In this document: positions 4,991 to 55,482 of the stretch, piece by piece
Layout of the letters: each line of letters opens with the position of its first letter
Position numbering within the stretch: the stretch's first letter is position 1
Assembly (NCBI GenBank): GCA_001782805.1
Contig: MFPT01000003.1
Location: forward strand, 44,072-108,071
Origin: Candidatus Magasanikbacteria bacterium RIFCSPHIGHO2_01_FULL_41_23
GTDB lineage: Bacteria > Patescibacteriota > Patescibacteriia > Magasanikbacterales > UBA922
Direction of reading: 5' to 3'
DNA length: 64,000 bases
Position numbers and translations under genes: made by a program
The notes under the pieces: generated by a model
The model's database searches: none
The model's input: the letters and a program-made list of their open reading frames with translations, nothing else
Told to the model about the DNA's origin: nothing

Positions 4991-5692
4991 TTATTTCTCC
5001 CCATCCAGCATCACGCGTAAGAAAAATAAAGTTTCTGATTTCAGTTTTGCTTTGGCCCAGATTTTTTGTTTTTCAGTGAGGAGTTCGCCCAGTCCGTCCA
5101 GAATTTTACGGTCGTTTAATTTTTCCAGATTCGCAATCAGTTTTTCCAATAATTCACGATAGGGCATATTAACGCGATTTTCCACAAGACCTTTATTGAT
5201 TGGCCAATTGTTTTGTTCAAAAAAATATACATCGAAAATATCGCGGTTGGTTTTGCCTAGTCTCTCGTACATCGCCATCAATTTATTGGCGAACATATCC
5301 GGTTGATCCATCACCAGCATCGAAATTCCCAAGTATGATTTAAGGGAATATTTTGAGCCGAAATTTCGTCGGTTGATTTCTATCTTTACATTTTGTGCGT
5401 TTTTTAATTTTTTACTATACGCCAAAATAAACAATAGATTAAATCTTTTTATATGAGCTTCTTTTATTACGCCGTATTTTACTATTATATTTTTAATTTG
5501 GTCAAAAATATACTCTTCTTTTGTCGCATCCAACAAATCAAAATCCAGATCAACGGAAAAACGATCCAAGCCATAAAATAAATATGCGGCCGTGCCGCCT
5601 TTGAAACCCAAAAATGGCGCAATGGATTTGTCGGCATAGATATCTTTCAGAATTTGCAATAAGATTTTTTTGTGCGTAGCCGGATTTAACAT
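4991..5692 (-). CDS. abiEii: AbiEii/AbiGii-family nucleotidyltransferase toxin (type IV toxin-antitoxin system)
   Basis: The nucleotidyltransferase motif 'GFKGGTAAYL...DLDFDL' (GG[ST]...DxD). The gene is 233 aa and sits directly downstream of the AbiEi-like gene on the same strand. Confidence 0.7.
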   Translation of the reverse strand: MLNPATHKKILLQILKDIYADKSIAPFLGFKGGTAAYLFYGLDRFSVDLDFDLLDATKEEYIFDQIKNIIVKYGVIKEAHIKRFNLLFILAYSKKLKNAQNVKIEINRRNFGSKYSLKSYLGISMLVMDQPDMFANKLMAMYERLGKTNRDIFDVYFFEQNNWPINKGLVENRVNMPYRELLEKLIANLEKLNDRKILDGLGELLTEKQKIWAKAKLKSETLFFLRVMLDGEK

Positions 5693-6430: not shown

Positions 6431-8014
6431 ATGTCCACCAAAAAACAAATTTTTCCGATAACACCACTTGTTCTTATTATTCTTGATGGTTTTGGTTTGG
6501 CTGATCCCAAAATTTCGGGCAATGCGATTACTCCCAAAACTGCGCCGCATATTTTTTCCTATTTAAAAAAATATCCAAACGCGAAACTCAAAGCCAGTGG
6601 TCGCGATGTGGGATTATTTGCTAATCAAGAAGGGAATTCCGAAGCCGGACATTTTAATATTGGCGCGGGTAGAATCGTCAAGCAGGATTTAGTGCGAATT
6701 TCCGAAGCGATTAAAGACGGAACTTTTTACAAAAATGAAGCTTTTTTGCAGGCGATTCATTATGCGCATGAGCATAAAAGCACGTTGCATGTGATGGGAC
6801 TTTTGACCAATGGCCAGAGCGCGCACGCGCATCCGCAACATGTGTACGCGTTATTGGAATTATTGCGTCGGCATAAAGTGGAGCGCGTTGCCCTTCATTT
6901 ATTTACTGATGGACGTGATTCATCGCCGCATTCGGCCATAACGCATTTACGAAAATTGCGTAAATATTTGGCGCCGCATGAAAAAATAGCTAGTGTGATG
7001 GGTCGATTTTATGCCATGGATCGGAATAAAATTTGGAGTCGAACGGAAATCGCATATCGTGCTTTGGTTTTGGGAAAAGCTGAGCATACTGCCGCGAGCG
7101 CAGAAGAAGCCATTAGTGCAGGATACAATCGCGGCGAAACCGATGAGTACATTACGCCGACTATTATTGAAAAAGATGATAGGCCAATCGCGACGATTGG
7201 CGACCATGACGCGATTATTTTTTTTAACGCGCGGAGCGATCGGGCGCGACAGCTTACCAAAGCGTTTGTTCAGCCGCAATCTGAATTTAATGCAATAAAT
7301 TCAGGGGTGTTTAAGCGCACTCAATTCCCCAAAAATATTCGTTTTGTGGCGATGACTGATTTTGGTCCGGATTTGCCGAATATCTTGACCGCTTTTCCCA
7401 GTCCTGATGTGGTGCATAGTTTGGTGTCTGCGATTGATGAACGATATAAACAATTATATATTTCGGAAACGGAAAAGTACGCGCACATTACATATTTTAT
7501 AAATGGCGGTTATTCCACGGCAATTAACGGCGAGAAACGCGAACTGATTCCGTCGGGCGATACATATTCATATGCTGACAAGCCTGGTATGTGTTCGCGT
7601 GAAGTTACGAGTCGGATTCTTTCTCACTTAAAAAAACAAGAATACGATTTTATTGCGGTCAATTTTCCTAATGTTGATATGGTTGGTCACACCGGTGATT
7701 ATCCGGCAACGTGCCAAGCGGTAAAAATAATTGACGGTCATGTGGCGCAAATTGTAACCGCAGTTATGCGTCAACATGGTGCGGTTGTCATTACGGCGGA
7801 TCATGGCAACGCGGAAATGATGTATGATCCGGAAACAGGAGCAATGGATACGGAACATAGCACTAGTTTGGTTCCATTTATAATAATATCCGCGTCATTG
7901 CGTCATCATAAAATAATCAAATCCGGTCGTTTGGCCGATGTAGCGCCGACATTGTTGCGCTTGCTGGATATTCCTAAGCCAAAGGAAATGACGAGTAAAT
8001 CTCTGATAAGTTAG
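6431..8014 (+). CDS. gpmI: 2,3-bisphosphoglycerate-independent phosphoglycerate mutase (paralog 1)
   Basis: 527 aa with the iPGM motifs 'ILDGFGL', 'GNSEAGHFNIGAGR', 'DGRD' and 'ADHGNAE'. Confidence 0.85.
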   Translation: MSTKKQIFPITPLVLIILDGFGLADPKISGNAITPKTAPHIFSYLKKYPNAKLKASGRDVGLFANQEGNSEAGHFNIGAGRIVKQDLVRISEAIKDGTFYKNEAFLQAIHYAHEHKSTLHVMGLLTNGQSAHAHPQHVYALLELLRRHKVERVALHLFTDGRDSSPHSAITHLRKLRKYLAPHEKIASVMGRFYAMDRNKIWSRTEIAYRALVLGKAEHTAASAEEAISAGYNRGETDEYITPTIIEKDDRPIATIGDHDAIIFFNARSDRARQLTKAFVQPQSEFNAINSGVFKRTQFPKNIRFVAMTDFGPDLPNILTAFPSPDVVHSLVSAIDERYKQLYISETEKYAHITYFINGGYSTAINGEKRELIPSGDTYSYADKPGMCSREVTSRILSHLKKQEYDFIAVNFPNVDMVGHTGDYPATCQAVKIIDGHVAQIVTAVMRQHGAVVITADHGNAEMMYDPETGAMDTEHSTSLVPFIIISASLRHHKIIKSGRLADVAPTLLRLLDIPKPKEMTSKSLIS

Positions 8015-8050
8015 TGGATAAATGTTTATTTTTTATTATCGTTAAGAAAT

Positions 8051-9628
8051 ATGAATCGTCCAAAACCATTGGTTCTCGCAATTTTAGATGGTTGGGGAGT
8101 AGCGCCTGATACAGCAGGCAATGCCATTGTGCGCGCCAAAACTCCCAATTTTCAAAAGTTTATTCGGGAATATCCCACAATGACTTTATTCGCTTCGGGC
8201 AATGAGGTTGGTTTATCGTTTGGCGAAATGGGAAATTCCGAAGTTGGGCATTTGAATATTGGCGCGGGACGCGTGTATTATCAGACACTGCCGCGCTTAA
8301 ACAAAAGTATTGCCGATCATAGTTTTTTTGATAATAAAGCATTTCTGGAAGCGGCTGAACAAGTCAAGAAAAATAAATCCAATCTCCATTTAATCGGGCT
8401 CGTGGGTCCGGGCAATGTTCACGCCAGTCAAGATCATTTGGACGCACTTTTGAAATTTGCCAAACAGCAAAAAATTAAAAATGTATTTGTGCATGCTATT
8501 CTGGACGGACGCGATGCTACGTTTAACAGTGGTGTGGATTTTATTAAAAAATTGCAGGCGACGATGAAAGATATTGGTGTGGGTAAAATCGCCACATTGT
8601 CCGGCCGATATTTTGGAATGGATCGTGATAATCGCTGGGATAGAGTGGAAAAAGCCTATCGCGCAATTGTTAGTGGTATCGCGGATGTTTATGCCAAAGA
8701 TCCGATTAAAGCCATCAAAGAATCGTATGCCAAAGAAGTTTATGATGAGGAATTTGTGCCAACAGTCATTGGCGAAGAAGGCGAACCAATGGCAAAAATT
8801 TCCGACGATGATAGTGTAATATTTTTTAATTTTCGGCCGGATCGCGCACGCCAATTAACGCAAGCGTTTGTTTTGCCGACATTCACGAAATTTGAACGCG
8901 AGTATTTAAAAAAATTATGTTTTGTGACCATGACGGAATATGAAAAAGAATTGCCCGTAACAGTGGCGTTTCCGCCGAATGTTGTCGTCAATTGTTTGGC
9001 GCAAACCATCAGTGACGCGGGATTAAAACAATACCATATTGCGGAAACGGAAAAATACGCGCATATTACATTTTTTTTGAACGGCACGATTGAAGAGGCT
9101 TTTTCGCACGAAGATCGTAAAATTATTCCATCGCCAAAAGTCGCTTCGTATGATAAAGCGCCGGAAATGTCCGCGGCCGCGTTGACCAAAGATGTTGTTA
9201 AAATTATTGAGGGTGGCAAGTATGATGTTATAATGTTGAATTTGGCGAATCCCGATATGGTGGCGCATACTGGGGATACCAAAGCGACGATAAAAGGAGT
9301 GGAAATGGTGGATAAATGTTTGGGCGATATTGCGGCGCATACTTTGGCGCATCATGGCGTAATGCTAATTACCGCGGATCATGGTAATGCCGAGGAATTG
9401 GTGAATTTACAAACCAATGAACGCGATAAAGAACATAGTACGAATCCGGTTCCGTTTATTATTATTGGCGAAGAATATCACGGAAAAACCGGTCCGGCCG
9501 GCGATCCGCCCGATGGTGATTTGAGTTTGTTGCATCCGGTTGGCATGTTGGCCGATGTCGCGCCGACGGTTTTGAGTATTTTGGGGATTAAACAGCCAAA
9601 AGAAATGACGGGGCGGGCGTTGACATAA
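8051..9628 (+). CDS. gpmI: 2,3-bisphosphoglycerate-independent phosphoglycerate mutase (paralog 2)
   Basis: 525 aa with 'ILDGWGV', 'GNSEVGHLNIGAGR', 'DGRD' and 'ADHGNAE'. It is a tandem paralog of the preceding gene. Confidence 0.85.
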   Translation: MNRPKPLVLAILDGWGVAPDTAGNAIVRAKTPNFQKFIREYPTMTLFASGNEVGLSFGEMGNSEVGHLNIGAGRVYYQTLPRLNKSIADHSFFDNKAFLEAAEQVKKNKSNLHLIGLVGPGNVHASQDHLDALLKFAKQQKIKNVFVHAILDGRDATFNSGVDFIKKLQATMKDIGVGKIATLSGRYFGMDRDNRWDRVEKAYRAIVSGIADVYAKDPIKAIKESYAKEVYDEEFVPTVIGEEGEPMAKISDDDSVIFFNFRPDRARQLTQAFVLPTFTKFEREYLKKLCFVTMTEYEKELPVTVAFPPNVVVNCLAQTISDAGLKQYHIAETEKYAHITFFLNGTIEEAFSHEDRKIIPSPKVASYDKAPEMSAAALTKDVVKIIEGGKYDVIMLNLANPDMVAHTGDTKATIKGVEMVDKCLGDIAAHTLAHHGVMLITADHGNAEELVNLQTNERDKEHSTNPVPFIIIGEEYHGKTGPAGDPPDGDLSLLHPVGMLADVAPTVLSILGIKQPKEMTGRALT

Positions 9629-19999: not shown

Positions 20000-21418
20000 T
20001 TAAAGTTCAAACGCTCCACTATCACACCTCATTTTTGGTCTAAAGTATCCTCGTTGATCTTGAAAAAGCAGTTTGTCCAAATAATCAAAACAGCCGTATT
20101 TATTTCCGGCATCTTTGGCCGGACTGGTTGGCGCTAGCCGATGTGTTTTGGTGGGACCACCATTAAATTCCAGTGGAAATAATAATGGATTGGTATTTAT
20201 TTTGTCGCCGCTAATAGGAGTAAAACAACTGTTATCGGAAATCACATTATTTCCATCGGATTTAATTGAATAAATGCAATTTTTACCTTCGCTCGCAATA
20301 ATGCTATTTTTTATTTTAAAATCAGTGCCGGGAACATTCACTACAAAAAATGTGTGTCCCACTGAAACTCCGGCCGCATCTGAATTTGCTATCGTCGGTA
20401 TCTTTACTGTATTTTTTGCCACGGTCACATTGGCCAAATAGGTTTTGGAATATGCTCCGGCATAGATTGCTCCGCCATGAGCAAAGACAAAACTTTCCGC
20501 ATTAGTGTAACCATACGACGTTGCTTCATTTCCGCTAATCGTACTATTCGTGATATAGAATTTACTGGAAGATTCCAAATACATTCCCGCTCCTTGCGCT
20601 TTGCCATACAATGTTTTTTCTTGCAATGTGGTTTCCACTTTGTTGCCATAAATGCTGGAACCTTCAATATCTGTCCGAATAATCGCCGTGCTGTATATGC
20701 CACCACCACGCGCGTTGGCCGATCCTTTACTTATTTTTGAACTGGTAAACGCGTAATTATTGAATATGGTTGAATTGAGAATTGTTAGTTTGTTGGCATT
20801 ATAAATTCCCGCTCCTTGCGCCTCCACATCTTTTCCTTTGATGATCAAACCGTTGCGTGGTCCGATTTCCGAATTAATTAAGTAAAGCGATGCCGTGCTC
20901 CCATTATAAATTCCCGCGCCGCGAATCGTGGTGTTTTTGTCCAGGCTGTTTTGCTCTATATTATTCTGATAGATTTTGACCGCGAACAATTCCAATATGC
21001 CTTGATTATGGATTCCCGCGCCTTGCAGTGTTGACGAAGCGGATAAATAACCGTTCGTGATACGCAGATTATTTATTACGACATGAGCATTTTTGGCAAT
21101 GGCAAAAATTCGACCGGTTTTTTGGGCATCAATAATGGCCGTGCCGTTTATCGTCATATCAACGTTGGTATCAGGCGAATCATTTCCCTTTATCAATAAT
21201 TCGCCGACAAGATTTATTTTTTCAATTGTGGGAGAAATGGTGATAACATCAGTTTCGTTGTTGGTATTTGCGACTTCAATAGCGCCACGCAATGTACAGG
21301 TCTCAGTGCACAAATCTGTGTCCCCGCTATCATTTACTAGAAATATTTTGGCCGCGGTATTTTGAACAAGAAAAAAATTGACAATAAAAAATATTAGGGC
21401 TGAAAAAATCAGTCTCAT
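20000..21418 (-). CDS. Secreted right-handed parallel beta-helix repeat protein
   Basis: Signal peptide, then N-terminal 'CTLRGAIEVAN' and multiple 'GAGIYN'/'GGGIY' repeat rungs. The C-terminal '...NGGPTKTHRLAPTSPAKDAG' motif is typical of beta-helix adhesin-like proteins. Confidence 0.65.
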   Translation of the reverse strand: MRLIFSALIFFIVNFFLVQNTAAKIFLVNDSGDTDLCTETCTLRGAIEVANTNNETDVITISPTIEKINLVGELLIKGNDSPDTNVDMTINGTAIIDAQKTGRIFAIAKNAHVVINNLRITNGYLSASSTLQGAGIHNQGILELFAVKIYQNNIEQNSLDKNTTIRGAGIYNGSTASLYLINSEIGPRNGLIIKGKDVEAQGAGIYNANKLTILNSTIFNNYAFTSSKISKGSANARGGGIYSTAIIRTDIEGSSIYGNKVETTLQEKTLYGKAQGAGMYLESSSKFYITNSTISGNEATSYGYTNAESFVFAHGGAIYAGAYSKTYLANVTVAKNTVKIPTIANSDAAGVSVGHTFFVVNVPGTDFKIKNSIIASEGKNCIYSIKSDGNNVISDNSCFTPISGDKINTNPLLFPLEFNGGPTKTHRLAPTSPAKDAGNKYGCFDYLDKLLFQDQRGYFRPKMRCDSGAFEL

Positions 21419-22812: not shown

Positions 22813-25122
22813 ATGACGCTCATAAAGCCATTGATTACCACCACCCTTTTAATGGGCAGTATCGTGACTTTTTTTTCTCACGTTAATTCACCCGTTGTTA
22901 CTAATGAAACCATTACGAAAAAAACAGCGAATGAAATAAAAGTCGCTCCTTTTTTTATTGCCAATAACGGCCAAATTGATGATGATGTCCATTTTTATGT
23001 CAAAGGAAGTCAACATTCTTTCTTTCTAAAAGAGAGTGGAGAAGCAGTTACTCGCAGTATTTATAAAGAAGATAAAAAAGAAAATTCCGATTCTGTTTTA
23101 CCCGGAGTGGAAACTGCAAATGCCCAAACCGTTCGCGAAGTAGGATTTACTCAAACATTTATTGGAGCAAACAGAGGAGTATTGCCAAAGGCAGGAGAAC
23201 GAGCGATTCCGATTCTTAATTTCTTTACTGGCAACAAAAAAACAACCGAAGTTCCCACGTATAATGATTTTACCTATAAAAATCTGTATGATGGAATTGA
23301 TTTGACCTATCGGGTATCCAAGGAAAACAAAGTTAAATACGATTTGATTGTTGGGGCAGGAGTTGATCCCCGCAACATTGTGATGCAGTTTGCCGGTGTG
23401 CAAGATTTGTTTGTTGATTTTGAAGGTAATTTGCAGATGAAAACCCCTGCCCAGACATTTACCCAGCACAAACCCTACGTGTACCAGTTGGTTAATGGTG
23501 TTGAGCAAGCTGTCGCGGGATCTTATAAAGTCAATATAAGCAATAATACCGTCAGTTTTGCTCTCGGTAATTACAATCTCGGTCTTCCACTTATTATCGA
23601 TCCGGTCTTGGATCAGTTGGGTGCAAGTACGTTGTATGGAGGGTCTGGTGCAGATAGTATAAATAGTCTTGTTCGAAACAGTTCAGATCAAATTTATGTG
23701 ACAGGTTCCACAGATGATAGCACTACTGATTTGCCGGTCATTTCCGGAGGATATGACATCTCTCACAATGGCGGTAATGATGCATTTGTTGCTCGGTTTG
23801 ATAATAATCTGGAAGATCTCACGTATGCTACTTATATTGGTGGATCTAGTAGTGAATATGGTGAGGATATTGCGCTTGATACTAACGGAAAGGTAGTTAT
23901 GGTTGGGCATACAAATAGTGGAGCATCATATCCAACAACCGCTGGATCATATTCAAGTTCCTCCGCTGGTGGTTTTAATATCCTTGTTTCGCGATTTTCC
24001 GCCAATTTAGCTGACCTCGAAGCATCTTCCCGATTTGGAGGAAGTGAGACCGATACTGCCTATGGATTATATATTAACAGTAGTAATATAATCTATATTT
24101 TAGGCAGCACTGGCAGCTCCAACTTTCCGGAAGTTAATGGAAATTACCAAAGCTCGTATGGAGGAGGCGAAGGAGATGTATTTGTAGCAAAGTTACCAAG
24201 TGATTTAACCTCTCTTGAATCTACCTATCTGGGTGGCGCGGCTGGTGACTATATTTATAGCGGGAATGCTCCACTTGTAGCAGATAGCAGTGGTAATATT
24301 TATGTTGGTGGTTACACTTTTTCAAGTGATTTTCCCACAACCGGCAGTGCCTACGATACTACATTTAGTGGTTCGAATTATGAGGCCTTTATTAGTAAGT
24401 TCTCATCTGATTTAACATCTCTTTCCGCTTCCACTTATTTTGGGTCTACCGGTGTTAGTCGGGTTGTAGATTTAATTTTCGATTCAAATGGTGCTCTATA
24501 TGCATCTATAGTAGTTGTTGGTACTGTGTCAACAACTCCAGATGTACTGCAGACAGATGCGTCAAAAGGATACATCGGCAAGTTTACGTCTAATTTACAG
24601 ACACTAAGTGTTGGCACCTATTTTGGTGGTGCTGGTGTAAATGTTTACCCGCGAACAATGACACTAGACAGCAGCGATAACGTTTATATTGCTGGAATTG
24701 TCTCTAGCACTATTTTCGCCACTACATCCGGCGCCTATGATACGTCGTATAATGGTGGTGCCTACGATGGTTTTGTTTCAAAAATAACCGCTAATTTGCA
24801 GACATTATCCGAATCAACGTACATTGGAGGTAGTGGAGAGGATTATATACTTGCTATAGCATTAAATGTGGATCAGGACAATGTGTTTGTAGCAGGATAT
24901 TCCGATGATTCCACTACTGATTACCCCACAACAGGAGATGCGTATGATACCACACATAATGGACTTGCGGATGGGTTTATAACTATTTTTGGAGCAATAG
25001 GAGGTATACAGGGCGGTGGTGGCGGAAGCAGTGTTCCGGAGTTTTCAACCTACATATATCTGATAACTTTGTTCTGGTGCGGGTATCTGTTGTTCAAAAA
25101 ATTTAACCCGCAATTTGTCTAG
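22813..25122 (+). CDS. Secreted SBBP (beta-propeller) repeat protein with a C-terminal PEF/PEP-CTERM-like sorting signal
   Basis: N-terminal signal/anchor. More than ten 'Y.GGsg.D.g.aia.D.sGN.YvtG.T.S.dFPtT.gAyd' SBBP-type repeats. The C-terminus is 'GGGGGSSVPEF-STYIYLITLFWCGYLLF-KKF'. Confidence 0.7.
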   Translation: MTLIKPLITTTLLMGSIVTFFSHVNSPVVTNETITKKTANEIKVAPFFIANNGQIDDDVHFYVKGSQHSFFLKESGEAVTRSIYKEDKKENSDSVLPGVETANAQTVREVGFTQTFIGANRGVLPKAGERAIPILNFFTGNKKTTEVPTYNDFTYKNLYDGIDLTYRVSKENKVKYDLIVGAGVDPRNIVMQFAGVQDLFVDFEGNLQMKTPAQTFTQHKPYVYQLVNGVEQAVAGSYKVNISNNTVSFALGNYNLGLPLIIDPVLDQLGASTLYGGSGADSINSLVRNSSDQIYVTGSTDDSTTDLPVISGGYDISHNGGNDAFVARFDNNLEDLTYATYIGGSSSEYGEDIALDTNGKVVMVGHTNSGASYPTTAGSYSSSSAGGFNILVSRFSANLADLEASSRFGGSETDTAYGLYINSSNIIYILGSTGSSNFPEVNGNYQSSYGGGEGDVFVAKLPSDLTSLESTYLGGAAGDYIYSGNAPLVADSSGNIYVGGYTFSSDFPTTGSAYDTTFSGSNYEAFISKFSSDLTSLSASTYFGSTGVSRVVDLIFDSNGALYASIVVVGTVSTTPDVLQTDASKGYIGKFTSNLQTLSVGTYFGGAGVNVYPRTMTLDSSDNVYIAGIVSSTIFATTSGAYDTSYNGGAYDGFVSKITANLQTLSESTYIGGSGEDYILAIALNVDQDNVFVAGYSDDSTTDYPTTGDAYDTTHNGLADGFITIFGAIGGIQGGGGGSSVPEFSTYIYLITLFWCGYLLFKKFNPQFV

Positions 25123-25218
25123 CTTGACACATACACGTTTTTCCTGCTAGGTTTCCTTTGTTCGTTATACCATAAATCACTTATTCCTCGGGGCTCAACT
25201 TCGAGGTAATTCATCAAT

Positions 25219-28200
25219 ATGAAACGAAGTTTTTTTCTTAGACCTCTTCTGGTTATTTTTTTGGTTTTCGTCAGCCTAGCACCCAGTGGAACACTACTGG
25301 CCGGCAATGGTTTGGAAAATCAGACCGGATTCGACCAATACGAACAGGGCAAGATATTGGTAAAATTTTCTTCTGATCTTGGTCTTGATTTGTTGGAAGG
25401 GGATTCGGCGGAAAAACGAATAAGAGGAGGAAAGCTACTATTTGTTGGAAATACCAAGCACAAACGCGATGCCAACTCTATTTTGAATAATCAATGGATA
25501 GAATCCATTGAGCCATTTTTCAAAGGTGCTCATTATTCAGCGCGCTTGATCAGGGCAAAAGATGGAACAATGACTTTGCAAGAGATAGAAAAAACGCGTA
25601 TCAATACTCTGCGACAAGCTCGCAATTTGGTTCCTTTGCCTGTCGCGCAGACCGTTACTACGTTGTCCAATATTTACCAAATTACTTTGCGTGCCGATAA
25701 ATTTCAAAATACAAAACGATTCGTAGATTTTCTGTCGGCACAGCCATACATTGAATTCGCGGAACAGCTCGATCTTCCCACATTGGGAATTTCTACCGTG
25801 CCAAATGATCCGCTGTATCCGGATCAATGGACACATAATAACACTGCTTTTAATGATGGTACGCCCGGAGCTGATATCAATACACAAGAAGCTTGGGATA
25901 CTGCCACCGGCACTTCCACAGTAATCGTAGCCGTTCTTGACAGCGGTATTACTCCACATAGTGAATTTTCCGATCGTTTGCTCGATGGTACTGCATACTA
26001 TGGCGACACTACGGACAAAGGTAAAAATGATATTTCCAATTCATCTCCCGATGGTCATGGTACGCAGGTCGCGGGCATCATAGGCGCGGAAGGTAACAAT
26101 GGTCAGGGACTCGCTGGAATATGTTGGAGCTGTAAAATGATTCCAATTCGCATTGTTGATTCAGGTGGATCAGGTAGCAAATTCAATCTTGCTGCCGGTA
26201 TTGGCGACGCGGTATCCATGGGCGCGGATGTCATAAACATGAGTATCGGTTATTCAAACGGTACAGCCACTCTGCAAGCCGCGGTACAAAATGCGTTCGC
26301 GGCAGGTGTTACCATGGTCGCGTCGAGAGGTAATTATAATTTCAGCAATCCTCAATTCAGTTCAAATGTCGCGCCGGTATTTCCCGCCAGTTATCCGGAA
26401 GTAATATCCGTGGGTGGCTTGAGTCCTTGCGATCAGCGTAAATCAGCTTCTTCATGCGACGGGGAAAATTGGTTCGAGAGTATGTACGCGGACACCTTAT
26501 CAATTTTGGCTCCGGGAACAAAAGTTGATACTACGAGCAAAAATGGTGGCTATGTGAATAATTTTAACGGTACCTCAGCCTCGGCTCCGGAAGTCAGTGG
26601 TGTAGTAGCCCTCATGTTATCTGTCAATCCTACGCTTACTCCTACGCAAGTAAGACAAGTTTTAGAGAGTACCGCGGTTGATCTCGGATCTGCCGGATAT
26701 GATTCTGAACATGGATACGGAAAAGTAAATGCCGAGGCTGCAGTGTTAGCGGCGCAAGCATTGTTGCCTGTTTCCGCGCCCACATTGCTGGCCCAATGGA
26801 ATTTTGATGAGCAAACATGGAATGGCGCGAACGCGGTTACAGATAGCGTAAACGCAAATCATGCCACTGCCTTTGGTGGAGCGTATCCTACCAGTAGTCC
26901 GGAAGTGGCGAGTGGTACAGCCGCTGTATTTGATGGAATTGATGATTATATAAAGACGCCGATTGTGTTTACCTCGCAAGGCGCGTTGAGTATCAGCGCG
27001 TGGTACAAAACAAATAATATCGGCAAAGATCGTATGGCAGTTGTGGGAGGCAATGCCGGCGGACGATTTGAAATGTATGTGCATCAGGGTAAGCCCGGAT
27101 GTCGTGTCTGGAAAAATGGAGAAAAATCAATATACGCGACAGAGCAATTTACAGGTGACTGGCATCATGTGGTATGTGTCCAAGATTACAGTGTCGGACA
27201 GACTCGGCTATATGTTGATGGCATACTGCGCGCAACGACGGCAAGCGCTTCAGATAGCGGAGGTGGATATTGGCATATAGGTCGTTCAGGATCAGCTTTG
27301 GCTTCGTCGTTTCAGGGTATGATTGATCGTGTTGGCATGTACAGCCAGACACTTGATGACGCGGATGTGCAAACTTTGTACACACAACAAAATATCTACA
27401 GTCCTGTGGCGCAAACAGACACTTCTCTACTTGGTGAATGGAAATTTGAACAATCCGCATGGACAAGCGCCACAGGTCAAGTGATTGATTCCAGTTCAAA
27501 CAATAATCACGCGACAGCGCAAGGCGGGATACAGCCAAGTACCGTCGCAGGTGTTCAAAATACCGCGGCGAATTTTGATGGAATCAATGACGCCATTCTC
27601 ACCCCTGTATCTTTTTCCAATGCGAATGATCTAACCATTTCCGCGTGGTACAAGACAGACAACGCGTCACAACAGCGTATGACGCTTATGGGCGGTAACA
27701 CCGGCGGGCGCTTTGAAATGTATGTACATCAAGGCAAGCCCGGATGTCGCGTGTGGGATACGGCTGACCGCTCCATTTACGCGCCACAAGCATCAGTAGG
27801 TATATGGACTCATGTGGCTTGTATTCAGCGCTATGGCGCCTCTCCTTCGACAGAGTTGTATGTAAACGGCGTATTCATTACTTCCACTCCACGCAGTTCT
27901 GTCGCGGCCGGAGGCGCGTGGTATATCGGTCGTTCCGGTTCAAGCATCGCTAACTATTTTAATGGTACCATAGACCATCCCATCATACGCGCCCGTGCTA
28001 TAAGCTCTGCCGAAATAACCGCATTATATAATAGTACAATCGTCGATTATCCTATAGTTACTTTTGATCCTGCATTGACCGCATGGTACAAATTCAATGA
28101 AACCGCTTGGACCGGTCAAATGGGGGATGTCTTTGACGCTACGGGGAAAAATCCGGCTCAATCAAAAAATGGAGTTTCGCAGACAGTCAAATTGGATACG

Positions 28201-28680
28201 GACAAGGTCGCGACATTTGACGGTGTGAATGATTTTATTTCAACACCAAATAAATTCACATCAAATGCTTCGATAACTCTTTCCGCGTGGGTCAAAACAT
28301 CAAATCAGACAAAAAAGCGTATGACCGTTGTTGGAGACAATGTAGGCGGGCGCTTTGAAGTATATGTTGATCAAGGCAAACCGGGATGTCGTGTGTGGAC
28401 TACGAAAGATATGAGTATATTTTCAAATTCGACGATAGACGGGCAATGGCATCATATTATATGCGTGCTCGATTATGCCTCTGGACAGACTCGTCTCTAT
28501 GTGGATGGCGTGCTTCAGAAGCAGGTCAACGGTGTCTCTGTGTCCGCTGGGGGTTATTTCTCTGTTGGAAAGTCAGGATCCGCCCTCGCTACTTATTACG
28601 AAGGATCGGTAGATAATGTTCAATTATACAGTAAGGCTTTCACTGACGCGGAAGCTGCTACTTTGTTTGGACAGGGATAA
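25219..28680 (+). CDS. Secreted subtilisin-like (S8) serine peptidase fused to three LamG/concanavalin-A-like lectin repeats
   Basis: Signal peptide. The S8 triad lies in 'VAVLDSGI', 'DGHGTQVAG' and 'GTSASAPEVSG'. Three ~215-aa repeats each carry 'W.F.E..W...HAT..GG...FDG.DD...TP......ISAWYKT...RM...G.N.GGRFEMYV.QGKPGCRVW'. Confidence 0.8.
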   Translation: MKRSFFLRPLLVIFLVFVSLAPSGTLLAGNGLENQTGFDQYEQGKILVKFSSDLGLDLLEGDSAEKRIRGGKLLFVGNTKHKRDANSILNNQWIESIEPFFKGAHYSARLIRAKDGTMTLQEIEKTRINTLRQARNLVPLPVAQTVTTLSNIYQITLRADKFQNTKRFVDFLSAQPYIEFAEQLDLPTLGISTVPNDPLYPDQWTHNNTAFNDGTPGADINTQEAWDTATGTSTVIVAVLDSGITPHSEFSDRLLDGTAYYGDTTDKGKNDISNSSPDGHGTQVAGIIGAEGNNGQGLAGICWSCKMIPIRIVDSGGSGSKFNLAAGIGDAVSMGADVINMSIGYSNGTATLQAAVQNAFAAGVTMVASRGNYNFSNPQFSSNVAPVFPASYPEVISVGGLSPCDQRKSASSCDGENWFESMYADTLSILAPGTKVDTTSKNGGYVNNFNGTSASAPEVSGVVALMLSVNPTLTPTQVRQVLESTAVDLGSAGYDSEHGYGKVNAEAAVLAAQALLPVSAPTLLAQWNFDEQTWNGANAVTDSVNANHATAFGGAYPTSSPEVASGTAAVFDGIDDYIKTPIVFTSQGALSISAWYKTNNIGKDRMAVVGGNAGGRFEMYVHQGKPGCRVWKNGEKSIYATEQFTGDWHHVVCVQDYSVGQTRLYVDGILRATTASASDSGGGYWHIGRSGSALASSFQGMIDRVGMYSQTLDDADVQTLYTQQNIYSPVAQTDTSLLGEWKFEQSAWTSATGQVIDSSSNNNHATAQGGIQPSTVAGVQNTAANFDGINDAILTPVSFSNANDLTISAWYKTDNASQQRMTLMGGNTGGRFEMYVHQGKPGCRVWDTADRSIYAPQASVGIWTHVACIQRYGASPSTELYVNGVFITSTPRSSVAAGGAWYIGRSGSSIANYFNGTIDHPIIRARAISSAEITALYNSTIVDYPIVTFDPALTAWYKFNETAWTGQMGDVFDATGKNPAQSKNGVSQTVKLDTDKVATFDGVNDFISTPNKFTSNASITLSAWVKTSNQTKKRMTVVGDNVGGRFEVYVDQGKPGCRVWTTKDMSIFSNSTIDGQWHHIICVLDYASGQTRLYVDGVLQKQVNGVSVSAGGYFSVGKSGSALATYYEGSVDNVQLYSKAFTDAEAATLFGQG

Positions 28681-29608
28681 TGAGAAGAGGAATAAGTTTA
28701 TAAATATATCCTATAAACAGGAGCAAAAATAACAACGATCCAATACCGCTATGGAATGCTTGGATGGCAAATTCAGGAGAATAATACGCGCCAACCAACA
28801 AGATAAGAAGCACACGGATGGTATTTAGTATATACGTTGCCAACAATCCAAGAATAAATAAGACAATGCTTCGTATTATATATATTTTGTGATGCAAAAT
28901 AAGCATAAGAACAGCAATCGAATACAGGGTGGTAAACGCAGTCATGGAATAGATTCCGGCGCACGGAGCTCCAATGTATATATCAAATTCTTTAATAATA
29001 ACATGATATGTATTCGGTTCTATACTATACGGCACGTGCAGCCAGGGAAGTACGATACCTAATAAAAATATGGTACCGCCCGAAAGATATGGCCAAATAT
29101 AATCAGTCAGAAGAAAAGCGCAAAAAAGCGGGAAAATAATAAGCGTGGAAAAAATCAATTCAAATTTGAATCGTCCGGCGAAATGTGTACCAAAAATAGC
29201 GAGAAAAATAAGGACATGAGTAACAAAAATAGTTATTAAATATATCGCATAGCGATCAATTTCTTTTTGCCCAAAAGAAAAAATCCATGGTAGATGAGTG
29301 TAGATAAATAACAAAAGTCCAACGCAGAAAATAGTTTCTATTTTATTTTGTTTAAAATATTTAATTGAACGAATTTTTTTGGCCGATAGCGCCAGTACGA
29401 TTGCGAGTATGACAAATCCAATATAACGCAAAAATCCATCGTTGAAAATTATTTTATAATAAATACTTTTTTCTACAATAAAATTAAAGGCAAAACGATT
29501 GACTGTATATAAAATGCAAAAAAGCATTATGCGTATAACAATCTGACTTAGATGATTTTGTTTGAGAGTGTTCCAATCAATTTCAATAAATTTCATATCC
29601 CATATCAT
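28658..29608 (-). CDS. Exosortase/archaeosortase-family integral membrane protein (putative sorting transpeptidase)
   Basis: About 8 TM helices. The Cys motif 'GAPCAGIYSM' and the conserved Asn/Arg motif 'ILNTIRVLL' are both hallmarks of EpsH/exosortase-family proteins. It lies adjacent to a PEF-CTERM-like target. Confidence 0.6.
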   Translation of the reverse strand: MIWDMKFIEIDWNTLKQNHLSQIVIRIMLFCILYTVNRFAFNFIVEKSIYYKIIFNDGFLRYIGFVILAIVLALSAKKIRSIKYFKQNKIETIFCVGLLLFIYTHLPWIFSFGQKEIDRYAIYLITIFVTHVLIFLAIFGTHFAGRFKFELIFSTLIIFPLFCAFLLTDYIWPYLSGGTIFLLGIVLPWLHVPYSIEPNTYHVIIKEFDIYIGAPCAGIYSMTAFTTLYSIAVLMLILHHKIYIIRSIVLFILGLLATYILNTIRVLLILLVGAYYSPEFAIQAFHSGIGSLLFLLLFIGYIYKLIPLLIIPVQTK

Positions 29609-29671
29609 ACCGTACTTGCTGCGGTATTGGCTAGGGTACTAAAAATACGTGGAATTAAACCACGTATTTTT

Positions 29672-30200
29672 ATACTTCTACCATATAAGCCGAATTTTGT
29701 CCTTCGACTCGACCTTCGGTCTCGCTCAGGACAAGTCCCTGTATAATTAAGGATTTATCATGAGCGAGCGAAGCGAGTCGAATGATGATCATTTCTCTTG
29801 TCCCGATGTTACCATCGGGATCAAATAACGAGCTAACTTTTCGAATCCAGACAAGTCGGGAAACGCTGCTCTTTCTCCAGGTAGGGTTTGCCATGTTGTC
29901 ATGTTGCCATAACAGAAGTATGGTAGCTTTTGACTCGAGGACAAAAACATCCATACACTTTTCACGTTTCACCACGAAGTGGTGACCCTGAGTGAACGAA
30001 GTGAATCGAAGGGTATCCTTCGACCTCGCTCAGGATAATCACTTCGCGATTAGTATTGTCTCTGTGGCACTATCCCGTACGCCGCGTTACCGCGTCGCAG
30101 GTGGATGTTATCCATTACCTTTTCCAATTGAATGGGCGGAGTTCGGACTTTCCTAACCTCGACTTTACGTCGGAGCTCGATCATCTTGGTAGAAGCGAGG
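29672..30200 (-). ncRNA. rnpB: RNase P RNA (bacterial type, with insertions), not reflected in the ORF track
   Basis: The minus-strand P4 halves are 'AGGAAAGUCCGAACUCC' (30137-30153) and 'ACAAAAUUCGGCUUAUAUGG' (29681-29700). The P1 helix pairs 5' 'CUUCUACCA' (30189-30197) with 3' 'UGGUAGAAG' (29675-29683). A terminator hairpin with a U-run follows at 29641-29672. Confidence 0.7.
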
Positions 30201-30265
30201 GAATAATAGGATAAAGTTGGATAAAAGTCAAGATTCATTTTATTTTTGATTTTCCTTTTTGATGG

Positions 30266-31729
30266 TTGACCGTAACGGATAATTGGGCTACTCTTATAGT
30301 AATAAATCTTATGAAAAAATCAGAAATCATCCTGATGTTCATCCAGTTGCCCTTGGATTTTATTTTGTTACTTTTGGCTGGCTGGTCAGCCTATTGGTTG
30401 CGGTTTTCCGATTGGGCAGTGGCTTGGCGACCAGTGTTGTTTAATCTAACGTTTGACAATTTTACCAGCATGCTCGTAGTTGTGGCCGTGGTATGGATTT
30501 TAATTTTTGCGTTGAGTGGCTTATATTCCACTGATCCCAACCGAAAATTATTGCCTGATTTGGCGCGAGTGCTACTTGGTTGTTCCGCCGGATTGTCAGC
30601 TGTTGCGGTCTATGTTTTGTTTAGGCAAACACCGTTTGATTCGCGTTTTTTAGTTGTTTTTGGTTGGGGATTTGCAGTTTCGTATGTGTGTTTTGGTCGC
30701 TTAGTTATGCGCGGATTTAAAGCTTTACTGTATCGGTCTAACATTGGTTTGCGTTGCGTGGTTTTGATCGGGGAAAATAATAGCACAGAATCAATTGTCA
30801 GTGTGTTGACCACGAGACGCGAATTAGGATATGACGTGCTTGGTGTGTACGAGCATCTTGATGAGCCAACTTCGCGCATTTTGGCCGAACTTGATTTGGA
30901 TGAAATTATTTTTTTGAATCCGCGCGCGCACGAAGATGAAGCTTTACGTGCAATTGATTTGTGCAATGAGCGTCATATCGTATTTAAATATTCAGCGGAT
31001 TTGTTCGCAACGTATTCTTCGCATATGCGCGTGCAGCCGTTGGCCGGTGTGCCGATTGTTGAATTAAAGCGCACGGCCCTTGATGGGTGGGGCCGGGTGT
31101 TAAAGCGCGTCACGGATATTGTGGTGAGCGCAGTATTAATTATAATTTTGGCACCAGTAATGCTCGCGGTTGCTTTCATTATCTGGTGTGAAACCGGTCG
31201 GCCAATTATTTATAAAAATGAACGGGTGGGTATTCGCGGCCAGAATTTTTTTACGTTTAAATTTCGTTCAATGTATCAAAAAGATTCGACCGGATCGCAA
31301 TTTGGGGCGGATGGTGAAAAAGCCGAAGCGCGTGAACAAGAATTAATTAAAAAACAAAACAGTAAAGCCGGTCCGATTTATAAAATTGCCAATGATCCGC
31401 GCGTTACGCCATTTGGGCGTTGGTTGCGACAGTGGAGTTTGGATGAATTACCACAATTTTTTAATGTGTTGAGTGGATCAATGAGTTTGGTTGGTCCGCG
31501 TCCGCATCAGCCACGCGAAGTTGGTCAATATCACGCCGAACACAAGCGGGTTTTAATTATCAAACCAGGCATTTCCGGCTTGGCGCAAATTTCCGGACGC
31601 AGTGATTTGTCATTTACCGATGAAATTCGTTTGGATGTTTTTTATATTGAGCATTGGAGTTTATTTTTAGATTTGGTAATTTTTTTTAAAACTCCGTTTA
31701 TTTTGTTCAAAAAACGACGAGTTTTATGA
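30266..31729 (+). CDS. Polyprenyl-phosphate glycosyl-1-phosphate transferase (WbaP/CpsE-like 'bacterial sugar transferase')
   Basis: N-terminal TM bundle and a C-terminal catalytic domain: 'FKFRSM...', 'PGISGLAQISGRSDLSFTDEIRLDVFYIE'. The true start may be the ATG at 30311. Confidence 0.8.
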   Translation: MTVTDNWATLIVINLMKKSEIILMFIQLPLDFILLLLAGWSAYWLRFSDWAVAWRPVLFNLTFDNFTSMLVVVAVVWILIFALSGLYSTDPNRKLLPDLARVLLGCSAGLSAVAVYVLFRQTPFDSRFLVVFGWGFAVSYVCFGRLVMRGFKALLYRSNIGLRCVVLIGENNSTESIVSVLTTRRELGYDVLGVYEHLDEPTSRILAELDLDEIIFLNPRAHEDEALRAIDLCNERHIVFKYSADLFATYSSHMRVQPLAGVPIVELKRTALDGWGRVLKRVTDIVVSAVLIIILAPVMLAVAFIIWCETGRPIIYKNERVGIRGQNFFTFKFRSMYQKDSTGSQFGADGEKAEAREQELIKKQNSKAGPIYKIANDPRVTPFGRWLRQWSLDELPQFFNVLSGSMSLVGPRPHQPREVGQYHAEHKRVLIIKPGISGLAQISGRSDLSFTDEIRLDVFYIEHWSLFLDLVIFFKTPFILFKKRRVL

Positions 31730-32850
31730 AAGTGGCTTTGGTGCATGATTATTTAAGTCAGGATGGCGGAGCGGAAAGGGTTTTGCGTGCGTTTCATGAA
31801 TTGTGGCCCGATGCGCCGATTTTTGTTTTGTTTTGCGAGCCGGGGAATGTTCCCGGTTTTGCTGACGCGCAAATTCATGAATCATTTTTGCGTTGGCTAC
31901 CGTTTGGTCGGACCAAATATCAATGGTATTTGCCCTGGATGCCGATTGCGACCGAGCGTCATAATTTACATGATTTTGATGTCGTGATTTCTTCCACGAG
32001 CGCGTTTGCCAAAGGGGTTTTGACTCGACCGGATACGCTGCACATTTCTTATTGTCACACTCCCACGCGATATTTATGGACTGACACGCATGAATACATT
32101 GCTGATCTTAAATATAATCGTTTGGTCAAAGCGGTTTTGCCAAAATTAATTCATAAATTACGGCTGTGGGATAAAATGAGCGTTGACCGGGTGGATTATT
32201 TTGTGGCTAATTCCGGCACGGTACATTCACGGATTCAAAAATATTATCGGCGCGACAGCGATGTTATATATCCGCCGGTTGATACGCATATTTTTCAGCC
32301 CGCGGAATCAATCGGCGATTATTTTGTGTCGGGCGGACGATTGGTTCCGTACAAGCGTTTCGATCTTTTGGTGCGTGTGTTTAACCGATTAGGAAAGCCA
32401 CTTAAAATTTTTGGGATTGGGCCGGAATTGTCAAAATTACAGGCGCAGGCAAAATCAAATATTCAATTTTTGGGGCGAATTTCTGAAATGGAAAAGGCTG
32501 ATTTGTTGGCAAAGGCTCAAGCATTTTTGCATCCGCAAATTGAAGATTTGGGGATTACTCCTTTGGAGTCAATGGCCGCGGGCAGACCGGTGATTGCCTA
32601 TGGCGTGGGAGGGGCAACGGAAACTGTAATTCCGGGCGAAACCGGCGTCTTGTTTCATGAACAAAATTGGGAAACCATTTTTGATACGGTATTGCGTTTT
32701 GATCCCACGGCGTGGAACAGTCAAAAAATTAGAAGTTGGGCGGAGCGCTTCAGTGTTTTTCATTTTAAAGAACGTTTTCATTCGTACGTAGATAATAAAT
32801 ACGCGGTGTTTCAAAACGAACGTGCGCGCTGTCAGTTGGAAGTGCGTTAA
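31726..32850 (+). CDS. Glycosyltransferase family 4 (GT-B)
   Basis: The EX7E-type motif 'EDLGITPLESMAAGRPVIAYGVGGATETV'. The start overlaps the stop codon of the preceding gene. Confidence 0.8.
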   Translation: MKVALVHDYLSQDGGAERVLRAFHELWPDAPIFVLFCEPGNVPGFADAQIHESFLRWLPFGRTKYQWYLPWMPIATERHNLHDFDVVISSTSAFAKGVLTRPDTLHISYCHTPTRYLWTDTHEYIADLKYNRLVKAVLPKLIHKLRLWDKMSVDRVDYFVANSGTVHSRIQKYYRRDSDVIYPPVDTHIFQPAESIGDYFVSGGRLVPYKRFDLLVRVFNRLGKPLKIFGIGPELSKLQAQAKSNIQFLGRISEMEKADLLAKAQAFLHPQIEDLGITPLESMAAGRPVIAYGVGGATETVIPGETGVLFHEQNWETIFDTVLRFDPTAWNSQKIRSWAERFSVFHFKERFHSYVDNKYAVFQNERARCQLEVR

Positions 32851-32897
32851 GAATGGGCATATGTGTTAAAAATAAGTATGCGTGTTAATTTGCCGCT

Positions 32898-34070
32898 ATG
32901 AATATTGCGATGGATATTCGCGTGCTCGCGACTATGCCCCGAACCGGAGTAGGGGAATATACGTTTGAACTGCTTAACGCGATTTTTTTATTGTCTCCCC
33001 AGAATACCTATTTTTTACTTTCCAGCGGCTGCAAAAAATTTTTTATGCCGCCGGAATGGCAAAAACCAAATATTATTTTGATACATTTGTCTTTTTCCAA
33101 TCGATTGCTGAATATACTAATGTTTTTATTTAAGTGGCCGCGTTTGACTGATTGGCCTCGTCTTGCCAGATGGCCGCATTTGAATAAAAAATGTGTTCCA
33201 AAATTTGATGTTTTGTATATTCCCAATTTTAATTTTGCTCCACTTGATCCGACGGTTAAAACTATAGTCATGGTTCATGATATTAGCTTTGCTTTATTTC
33301 CCCAATTTTTTTCGTGGAAACAGCGTCTTTGGCATTGGGCTTTGCGACCGAAACATTTATTACAAACAGCTGATCAGATTATCATGCCTTCACATAATAC
33401 GCGGCGCGATGTAATTGAATATTTTGGTATTGAAGAAAAAAAAGTTACGACTCTGTATCCCGGATTATGTTCAGAATTTTTTGCTCCGAATGAAGCAGAA
33501 ATTTATCGAGTTAAAAATAAATATAATTTGCCAGACAATTATATTTTATTTTTAGGCACGCTTGAACCGCGCAAAAATGTGGCGGCGATTATTTATGCGT
33601 TTCAAGAATTACATCGCACTAATGCACTGGCTCGCGATTTAAAATTAGTGATTGCTGGCGCGCTGGGCTGGAAAAATTCAGAGGTAAAAAAAATGATTGC
33701 GGCTGACAAACATATTGTTTCAATTGGGTATATTGATGAAAAAGATAAGCATGCCCTGTACAAACTCGCTCGCGTGTTTGTGTATCCCAGTTTTTATGAG
33801 GGTTTTGGTTTGCCGGTTTTGGAAGCGATGGCCACGGGAACACCGGTTATTACCAGTAATCGGTCTTCGTTAGTTGAAGTGGCTGGCACGGCCGCGTATC
33901 TGGTTAATCCGGATCGGATTGATGAATTAGTTACTGGTTTGGAAAGATTTTTGTTTGATTCCGAATTACATAATTTGTATAAAACTCGCGGTTTGGTACA
34001 AGCGCAAAAATTTTCTTGGGAGCGAACGGCTCGAGAATTTATGACTAATTTGATTTCAGAACCTAATTAA
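32898..34070 (+). CDS. Glycosyltransferase family 4 (GT-B)
   Basis: 'YPSFYEGFGLPVLEAMATGTPVITSNRSSLVEV'. Confidence 0.8.
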   Translation: MNIAMDIRVLATMPRTGVGEYTFELLNAIFLLSPQNTYFLLSSGCKKFFMPPEWQKPNIILIHLSFSNRLLNILMFLFKWPRLTDWPRLARWPHLNKKCVPKFDVLYIPNFNFAPLDPTVKTIVMVHDISFALFPQFFSWKQRLWHWALRPKHLLQTADQIIMPSHNTRRDVIEYFGIEEKKVTTLYPGLCSEFFAPNEAEIYRVKNKYNLPDNYILFLGTLEPRKNVAAIIYAFQELHRTNALARDLKLVIAGALGWKNSEVKKMIAADKHIVSIGYIDEKDKHALYKLARVFVYPSFYEGFGLPVLEAMATGTPVITSNRSSLVEVAGTAAYLVNPDRIDELVTGLERFLFDSELHNLYKTRGLVQAQKFSWERTAREFMTNLISEPN

Positions 34071-41943: not shown

Positions 41944-42016
41944 GGGCGCATAGCTCAGTGGTTAGAGCACGTCGCTTATAACGACGGGGTCGATGGTTCA
42001 AGTCCATCTGCGCCTA
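41944..42016 (+). tRNA. tRNA-Ile with anticodon UAU (AUA-reading)
   Basis: GGGCGCA-TA-GCTC-AGTGGTTA-GAGC-A-CGTCG-CTTATAA-CGACG-GGGTC-GATGG-TTCAAGT-CCATC-TGCGCCT-A. Anticodon loop positions 34-36 read TAT. Confidence 0.8.
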
Positions 42017-42038
42017 CTGAAATTTGAGAGTTTTTTAT

Positions 42039-54267: not shown

Positions 54268-54905
54268 GGCCAAGCACTTAAATTCCCTACAAATTAGCTT
54301 GCTTTAAGTCCAGAAAAGGATGTAGTCCCGACAAAAGTCGGGATGTCGCCTCCGGCTCCAGATACTGAGGTAAAAAGAGTAACCTCCGCGGTTCTCTTTT
54401 TCATTATTAAGGGTTTGAGTTTGTCCATTACAATTTACACAACAATTGCAATCTGCAACAAATTGCAATTACGATAAGGTTCACATTATAAATGTGACAA
54501 GAAACAATAATCGTCTATCCAAAATCAAGATCAACTCCTTTCTGATTTATCAGAGAGGGTTACTCCAATAATCCTTCGGGATTTATTTGAGAGTTTGATC
54601 CTGGCTCAGGACGAATGTTGGCGGCGTGTATAAGGCATGCAAGTCGAGGGATCGATCGTAGCAATACGATACGGACCGGCAGACGGGAGAGTAACACATT
54701 GGTAACCTACCTCTAAGACGGGGATAGCCTTCCGAAAGGAAGATTAATACCCGATAGTAACGCGGGGACACAAGTCATTCGCGTTTAAAGATTTTTCGCT
54801 TAGAGCAGGGCCTATGGTCTATCAGCTAGTTGGTGAGGTAATGGCTCACCAAGGCGACGACGGATAGGGGACGTGAGAGCGTGATCCCCCTCACTGGGAC
54901 TGAGA

Positions 54906-54936
<31 letters not shown>

Positions 54937-55330: not shown

Positions 55331-55361
<31 letters not shown>

Positions 55362-55440: not shown

Positions 55441-55482
<42 letters not shown>

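Follow-up and report, generated by a model that had tools for sequence, protein, structure and literature searches.

An exosortase-family enzyme and its candidate VPEF-tailed cargo in a genome of the Candidate Phyla Radiation

Three motifs, Cys-x-Gly, Asn-x-x-Arg and His-x-x-x-Gly, are invariant in the exosortase family and define it (Haft et al. 2006, PMC1569441); its members have at least eight membrane helices, three consecutive ones of which bear at their outer ends the residues of a putative Cys/Arg/His triad (PMC1569441). The PEP-CTERM signal that is paired with XrtA (exosortase A)/EpsH is restricted to bacteria with an outer membrane, with a median of 8 cargos per genome (PMC1569441). 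ArtC pairs with PEF-CTERM, and archaeal genomes in which this domain occurs contain up to 19 copies each (PMC5244752). The only relative studied experimentally is ArtA of Haloferax volcanii, which cuts its substrates at a tripartite C-terminal signal and joins them covalently to a membrane lipid; the predicted active-site residues of ArtA have been shown to be required (PMC6098224). Here we compare with these systems a locus in a 64,000-nucleotide stretch of DNA, referred to as the window, from Candidatus Magasanikbacteria bacterium RIFCSPHIGHO2_01_FULL_41_23, a groundwater member of the Candidate Phyla Radiation (CPR) from the Rifle aquifer (assembly GCA_001782805.1, contig MFPT01000003.1, positions 44,072 to 108,071). 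The locus encodes a 316-aa membrane protein, a candidate exosortase, and a 769-aa protein with a C-terminal tail built around the residues VPEF, its candidate cargo. We consider it probable, at roughly 0.7, that the enzyme recognises the VPEF tail, cleaves it via Cys216 and transfers the cargo to a surface acceptor, of which the cleavage, the transpeptidation and the acceptor are steps that we infer. An earlier interpretation of the same DNA made from the letters alone, the sequence-only reading, had paired the two proteins as an exosortase and its target, and this overall interpretation is supported.

Assignment of the enzyme to the exosortase/archaeosortase family, as proposed in that reading, held, with scores of 62.1 bits on PF09721 (Exosortase_EpsH; gathering score 25.7) and 44.1 bits on the TIGR04178 exosortase/archaeosortase signature (cutoff 23). 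The protein, which begins at Met5 in the NCBI annotation and is then 312 aa long (P0001), carries the family motifs as C216-A-G218, N262-T-I-R265 and H286-S-G-I-G290. The Cys and Asn/Arg motifs, contained in 'APCAGIYSM' and 'NTIRV', had been recognised previously, the HxxxG motif had gone unmentioned, and conservation was confirmed in an alignment of 45 enzyme sequences in which W172, C216, G218, N262, R265, G273, A281, F285 and H286 are invariant; G290 of HxxxG is invariant among the closer relatives. A word-indexed search, with either a single sequence or a profile, retrieved only 4 relatives, the clade becoming visible by exhaustive HMMER searching, which returned 746 cluster representatives at E ≤ 1e-3, 106 of them at E ≤ 1e-10. 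A 5-sequence enzyme alignment searched against genome contigs and metagenome contigs yielded 5 loci from each, a number too small for statistical profiling. Named relatives belong to Nomurabacteria, Gracilibacteria, Peribacteria and another member of the Magasanikbacteria, with a distant one in Nanoarchaeota (DPANN), and several of the CPR homologues already bear the NCBI name 'exosortase/archaeosortase family protein'. The window enzyme scored below the cutoffs of the named subfamilies, reaching 40.9 against 150 for XrtE, 31.7 against 100 for ArtC, 30.7 against 313 for XrtV, 29.6 against 208 for XrtA and 19.1 against 275 for XrtB. Judged by motifs and profile scores, the 316-aa protein is thus a true member of the exosortase/archaeosortase family, lying outside the named subfamilies in a clade centred on the CPR.

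A confident AlphaFold2 model of the enzyme built on the 45-sequence alignment (predicted local distance difference test score, pLDDT, 91.8; predicted template modelling score, pTM, 0.84) contains eight long helices (residues 18-49, 58-80, 89-110, 116-146, 148-190, 219-239, 244-275 and 278-309) and a small 3-strand sheet directly before Cys216. In this model Cys216 is situated just ahead of helix 6, Arg265 within helix 7 and His286 within helix 8, which brings all three close to the same ends of these consecutive helices. The loops that face away from the catalytic residues (81-88, 147 between helices 116-146 and 148-190, and 240-243) are basic; because the positive-inside rule would place these loops in the cytoplasm, Cys216, Arg265 and His286 are predicted to be oriented toward the outer face of the membrane. 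Comparison with solved structures returned no sequence match in the PDB by profile search and no significant Foldseek match in the PDB. The enzyme also contains a PEF of its own, in 'YYSPEFAIQAFH' (residues 275-286; 28751-28786, minus strand), which precedes its last helix in the order PEF, helix, basic residue, resembles the proposed substrate signal and adjoins the catalytic His286. PEF(A) is found at this position in the window enzyme, P0002, P0003, P0004 and P0006 but not clade-wide, and could be a substrate mimic or a coincidence.

The candidate cargo has a signal-peptide-like N-terminus (MTLIKPLITTTLLMGSIVTFFSHV...), a DUF7948 domain (PF25778, 174 bits) and SBBP beta-propeller repeats (PF06739, 46 bits), and belongs to a family of more than 6,000 members. 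Its C-terminus reads '...SSVPEFSTYIYLITLFWCGYLLFKKFNPQFV', or '...GGIQGGGGGSSVPEFSTYIYLITLFWCGYLLFKKFNPQFV' over a longer stretch. The tail had been described as VPEF, an ~18-aa hydrophobic helix and a terminal KKF; the order of signature, helix and basic residues stands, but the helix comprises 17 residues and the protein ends KKFNPQFV, with six residues after KK. The helix has a mean Kyte-Doolittle value of ~1.5 over the 17 residues (hand count) and 1.76 over the best 15. The PEF-CTERM model TIGR03024 (25 positions, cutoff 23 bits) gave no match at E ≤ 10 for the tails of the window cargo, its orthologue P0155 or the small protein of locus L028 described below, and the cargo tail was likewise without a match to the PEP-CTERM model TIGR02595. 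By the same procedure IPTL-CTERM was detected in a cargo relative, P0218, at 28.1 bits against a cutoff of 20.5, and the null result for the cargo tail therefore means that its signal is absent from the model library. The earlier description of the tail as PEP/PEF-CTERM-like stands, '-like' being the right word because the curated PEF-CTERM and PEP-CTERM models do not recognise it.

Comparison of cargo relatives indicates that the tail is both constrained and modular. P0155 is 59% identical to the cargo overall, while the VPEF...LL core of the tail is 90% identical. Distant relatives contain other C-terminal modules at the same position, including the bona fide IPTL-CTERM of P0218 and weaker resemblances to GlyGly-CTERM, Synerg-CTERM, MYXO-CTERM-type and CFI-box tails, and others have no anchor. 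A GlyGly-CTERM/rhombosortase interpretation of the Gly-rich stretch preceding VPEF was rejected, as no GlyGly-CTERM model matched and the tails of L007 and L028 retain VPEF but not the Gly run.

The VPEF tail recurs beside enzyme homologues of two other lineages on a different protein. In locus L007 (Nomurabacteria), a gene for a 221-aa secreted protein ends 9 bp upstream of an enzyme homologue 34% identical to that of the window. The C-terminus of this protein, '...SSGVPEFQDIVYVMVMAILVGYMLVFLKQNR...', consists of GVPEF, a helix and a basic KQNR stretch and weakly resembles archaeal PEF-CTERM (14.1 bits, E = 0.043, below the 23-bit cutoff). Locus L028 contains the closest enzyme homologue found, 38% identical, and the adjacent gene encodes a 215-aa protein ending TVPEFSDYLYMITL...RMKK ('...ETVPEFSDYLYMITLAAGGWYVFTRMKKF...'). 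The two small proteins are homologous to one another (E = 9e-35), and their BLASTP alignment with the window cargo is confined to the tail (15/30 identical, E = 4e-5). When the window and loci L001-L027 were scanned in six frames, the only instances of PEF ahead of a hydrophobic C-terminal segment were those of the candidate cargos and of the last helix of the enzymes. A VPEF-tailed protein is present in 3 of the 14 enzyme neighbourhoods examined (window, L007 and L028), and the loci without one include Peribacteria, Gracilibacteria-type, second Magasanikbacteria and Nanoarchaeota representatives. Thus, the expectation that similarly tailed proteins exist was realised in unrelated proteins adjoining enzyme homologues in two other lineages but not closer to hand, since no second VPEF-type cargo was detected in the 64-kb window or in ~10 kb beyond each end; that only one cargo is visible in the window had been noted before and was upheld by the six-frame scan. 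Cargo genes need not adjoin the enzyme gene. Combined, the recurrence of the tail, the constraint on it and its modularity favour, at the level of sequence comparison, a sorting signal over a plain anchor.

Several further loci and proteins bear on the distribution of such tails. In L016 (7557-9890 of CAZMHV010000002.1), a natural tail-less variant of the small protein occurs, the VPEF tail being replaced by a ~600-aa extension without a C-terminal helix. The L016 record is labelled Gammaproteobacteria, a label that is probably wrong because the synteny YidC-Wzy_C-GroEL-enzyme-PrfA-Sua5 matches that of Nomurabacteria L007. The Peribacteria locus L017 (3743-17091) contains an enzyme homologue amid four or more secreted proteins whose C-termini form helix-plus-basic tails; it was rejected as a further instance since no common signature was seen in these tails, and the signal of this clade may be another one or a degenerate one. 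L030 and the Gracilibacteria locus L032 have a common synteny of DUF1290, Dus, enzyme, T2SSE-type ATPase and methyltransferase, with no VPEF protein near. In the window itself, two genes upstream of the cargo gene, a 472-aa secreted protein (20000-21418, minus strand) carries, as its last C-terminal element, a 'choice-of-anchor Q' domain (59.3 bits) with no anchor beyond, and was rejected as a second cargo for want of a C-terminal helix.

The locus resembles each of the described systems in part. ArtC (TIGR03762) and PEF-CTERM (TIGR03024), found in methanogens and anaerobic methanotrophic (ANME) archaea, share with it the enzyme superfamily, a P-E-F preceding a helix and basic cluster, and hosts without an outer membrane; here, however, the host is bacterial, the enzyme is far below the ArtC cutoff, the window tail does not match TIGR03024 and a single cargo is visible. 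With XrtA/EpsH and PEP-CTERM (Haft et al. 2006) it shares the family, the three motifs and the predicted location of the catalytic residues at the outer face, together with a possible association with exopolysaccharide genes that extends to a Bac_transf priming enzyme (PMC1569441), but it differs in having a CPR host, one visible cargo, VPEF in place of PEP and a low XrtA score. The best-scoring subfamily model for the enzyme is that of XrtE, whose VPEID-CTERM signal (TIGR04162) also begins V-P-E, although the score is far under the cutoff, the match covers only positions 167-295 of a 516-position model, and the window protein consists of the exosortase domain alone. ArtA acts on a comparable tripartite tail in a host with a single membrane and S-layer and no outer membrane (PMC6098224); it differs in its PGF signal and its archaeal host and lipids, and is not among the subfamily models matching the enzyme at E ≤ 1. 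Sortase A of Gram-positive bacteria provides an analogy, its LPXTG substrates having a signature-helix-basic tail that is processed by a Cys/His/Arg transpeptidase on the outside of a single membrane (PMC1569441), but it is non-homologous, being a single-pass beta-barrel enzyme with lipid II/peptidoglycan as acceptor.

CPR bacteria are reported to be without an outer membrane, and the route proposed here, by analogy with that of ArtA, would operate at a single membrane. The cargo would be exported by Sec and held transiently by its C-terminal helix with KK in the cytoplasm, exposing VPEF at the outer membrane face, where the enzyme would recognise VPEF together with the helix and Cys216 would cleave to give an acyl-enzyme. 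The cargo would then be passed to an acceptor on the cell surface, the likeliest candidates being a membrane lipid, as in the case of ArtA, and a lipid-linked glycan produced by the nearby Bac_transf/GT4/Wzy-type genes. In related CPR bacteria the same signal would be used by the different small secreted protein encoded beside the enzyme.

Three other explanations were weighed against this route; against all of them stands the presence of a conserved extracytoplasmic signature on proteins that are not homologous but are encoded beside orthologous enzymes. The VPEF tail might be a permanent membrane anchor, its adjacency to an exosortase homologue that acts otherwise, on another cargo or in polysaccharide assembly or export, being incidental. 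The scarcity of VPEF proteins near the enzyme (none in 11 of 14 neighbourhoods), the failure of curated signal models to recognise the tail and the many SBBP relatives that end in plain helix-plus-basic tails all speak for this reading. We consider it improbable, however, because the VPEF and helix pattern is common to non-homologous proteins each encoded no more than two genes from orthologous enzymes, conservation is higher in the tail core than in the rest of the protein, and a mere anchor would need no conserved extracytoplasmic signature. Less probable still is that the enzyme recognises VPEF but only sheds its substrates, so that the propeller, or the small protein in relatives, is released to the medium or S-layer and not covalently re-attached. 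The Cys/Arg/His chemistry is compatible with both hydrolysis and transpeptidation, the sequence reveals no acceptor, and the S8 protease encoded next to the enzyme is itself secreted and has no anchor; on the other hand, ArtA, the one characterised member, re-attaches its substrates to lipid (PMC6098224), recurrent glycan-assembly neighbours suggest an acceptor pathway, and a protein destined for release would have no need of prior anchoring in the membrane. Recent recombination or horizontal transfer among CPR surface proteins, with no functional tie to the exosortase homologue, would explain why the window and L028 tails are very similar (VPEFSTYIYLITL and VPEFSDYLYMITL), and CPR surface proteins are mosaic, but it would explain neither the position of tailed genes beside the enzyme in three lineages, in which the other enzymes are 34-38% identical to that of the window, nor purifying selection on the tail core, and we regard it as very improbable.

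Recognition and transfer of the VPEF-tailed cargo by the enzyme is therefore the reading that we retain, and a number of observations weigh against it. The enzyme falls below every named subfamily cutoff and therefore has no characterised orthologue, and the PDB sequence and Foldseek searches provided no solved structure of its fold against which the active-site geometry could be checked. The window tail, searched alone at E ≤ 10, matches no curated sorting-signal model in NCBIfam, and its helix is only moderately hydrophobic. Only one cargo occurs in the ~84 kb of this genome covered by the window and its flanks, and no VPEF protein is present in the enzyme neighbourhoods L010, L012, L016, L017, L018, L019/L023, L025, L029, L030, L031 and L032. 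In L016 the gene beside the enzyme encodes a 55%-identical homologue of the small cargo from which the tail is absent. The proximity of glycan genes may partly reflect housekeeping synteny (YidC-Wzy_C-GroESL-Xrt-PrfA), and we know of no exosortase with a biochemically defined acceptor.

Glycan genes were found within 10 kb of the enzyme gene in the window, L007, L010, L012, L016, L019/L023, L028, L030 and L031, several of which fall in one synteny block, and were absent near the enzyme in L025, L029 and L032. L031 presents the arrangement on a single strand, with Bac_transf, three genes of glycosyltransferase family 4 (GT4), YidC, Wzy_C and GroES/EL followed by the enzyme. Wzy_C is located three to four genes upstream of the enzyme in L007, L016 and L019/L023, and a glycosyltransferase family 2 (GT2) gene directly upstream in L010; a glycosyltransferase cluster lies near the enzyme in L012 (Nanoarchaeota), GT4, GT2 and epimerase genes in L028, and Bac_transf in L030. 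In the window, the WbaP-like priming transferase and two GT4 enzymes that had been predicted beyond rnpB were confirmed (Table 1), the priming enzyme scoring 367.3 bits on TIGR03025 (EPS_sugtrans) against a cutoff of 295.55 and 206.5 bits on PF02397; in other assemblies it is called as a 472-aa protein from a later start. Thus, the linkage of exosortases with exopolysaccharide genes invoked in the sequence-only reading recurs in most loci, but it is circumstantial and suggestive only.

The predicted S8 subtilase with three LamG repeats was likewise identified between the cargo and enzyme genes, with 184.6 bits on PF00082 and 211 bits on PF13385 over three stretches, corresponding to three LamG/ConA-like domains. 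It is secreted and has no C-terminal anchor, and a single further S8 gene was noted in the vicinity of an enzyme homologue, ~9 kb from it in L028. The protease was rejected as the sorting enzyme, being a soluble secreted subtilase that adjoins the exosortase homologue only in the window; any part that it plays in the system is putative. The S8 protease and enzyme genes are convergent and their 3' ends overlap by 23 bp (28658-28680).

The open reading frames of the cargo, S8/LamG protein, enzyme and glycosyltransferases are all situated where the sequence-only reading had placed them (Table 1), and the window locus is present identically in GCA_001784325.1 and many independent assemblies. The rnpB gene, upstream of the enzyme gene and sharing its strand, stands between that gene and the glycosyltransferase operon, which is divergent from both; rnpB is a landmark here and no functional part of the sorting system. 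At 527 nt against a 367-position model (142.7 bits), this RNase P RNA implies large insertions. The best promoter-like site (30231-30203, minus strand) is directly upstream of rnpB, and the scan for promoters and terminators around the enzyme gene was uninformative, with 9 sites against 7.3 expected.

Table 1. Positions of genes, codons and tail segments of the candidate sorting locus within the window (position 1 is the first nucleotide of the window)
Feature	Position	Strand	Basis
Candidate cargo gene, 769 aa	22813-25122	+	open reading frame, placed as in the sequence-only reading
Cargo tripartite tail	25000-25119	+	sequence
Gly-rich linker GGIQGGGGGSS	25000-25032	+	cargo tail
VPEF signature	25033-25044	+	cargo tail
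Hydrophobic segment STYIYLITLFWCGYLLF, 17 residues	25045-25095	+	cargo tail
KK	25096-25101	+	cargo tail
FNPQFV	25102-25119	+	cargo tail
S8/LamG protease gene, 1153 aa	25219-28680	+	open reading frame, placed as in the sequence-only reading
Exosortase candidate gene, 316 aa	28658-29608	-	open reading frame, placed as in the sequence-only reading
His286 codon	28751-28753	-	enzyme gene
Arg265 codon	28814-28816	-	enzyme gene
Asn262 codon	28823-28825	-	enzyme gene
Cys216 codon	28961-28963	-	enzyme gene
rnpB (RNase P RNA), 527 nt	29670-30196	-	RF00010 142.7 bits
Polyprenyl-phosphate glycosylphosphotransferase (Bac_transf, WbaP/WcaJ class priming enzyme)	30266-31729	+	TIGR03025, PF02397
GT4-family glycosyltransferase	31726-32850	+	PF00534 82.8 bits; PF13439 40.8 bits
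GT4-family glycosyltransferase	32898-34070	+	PF00534 116.6 bits

Other features of the window were recorded in passing. The window has a 16S rRNA gene (54583-55998, plus strand) with no 23S gene after it; an open reading frame for a LAGLIDADG homing endonuclease (56310-56744, plus strand) lies ~310 nt downstream of the 16S gene, and a Bro-N domain gene comes next. A tRNA-Ile gene with anticodon TAT is located at 41944-42017 (plus strand); decoding of AUA by tRNA-Ile(TAT) is uncommon in bacteria. An AbiEii toxin-family gene (4991-5692, minus strand) and two tandem paralogues of cofactor-independent phosphoglycerate mutase (6431-9628, plus strand) are also present, both from Pfam annotation of L026.

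Much of bacterial diversity belongs to the CPR, whose members, most of them uncultured, are believed to live attached to other cells; little is understood of how they construct and decorate their surface. Full-text literature searches returned no description of an exosortase/archaeosortase system in CPR, Patescibacteria, Parcubacteria or DPANN. The sequence-only reading had considered such a system unusual in this setting; the host is indeed a CPR bacterium and PEP-CTERM is restricted to diderms, but generic family labels already exist in NCBI, and the XrtG subfamily of exosortases is already known in monoderm Gram-positive bacteria. Because of that generic annotation and of XrtG, and because pairs of a subfamily with its signal follow the pattern of Haft and colleagues, a strong claim of novelty is weakened, and we read what is new here as a subfamily with its own signal within a known sorting system.

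At this level, the finding extends the exosortase family past the diderm, exopolysaccharide-associated setting in which it was defined, and the locus is a candidate, amenable to testing, for covalent anchoring in a bacterium that has no outer membrane. The rule of VPEF, helix and basic cluster provides a predictor of surface-displayed CPR proteins, and the compact two-gene module of small cargo and enzyme in L007 and L028 could be moved to a tractable host. Because the acceptor is known for no bacterial exosortase, a minimal system with one cargo could help to settle the acceptor question. More tentatively, and as a possibility that we do not consider likely, CPR bacteria, and perhaps some DPANN archaea, may have an exosortase subfamily of their own with a 'VPEF-CTERM' signal, which would covalently tether adhesin-like proteins, either SBBP propellers or a conserved small secreted domain of ~215 aa, to a lipid or to a lipid-linked glycan from the neighbouring Bac_transf/GT4/Wzy genes. 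If true, this would constitute a third, previously uncharacterised route of surface-protein anchoring in a single-membrane bacterium, one potentially central to the attachment of episymbionts to their hosts.

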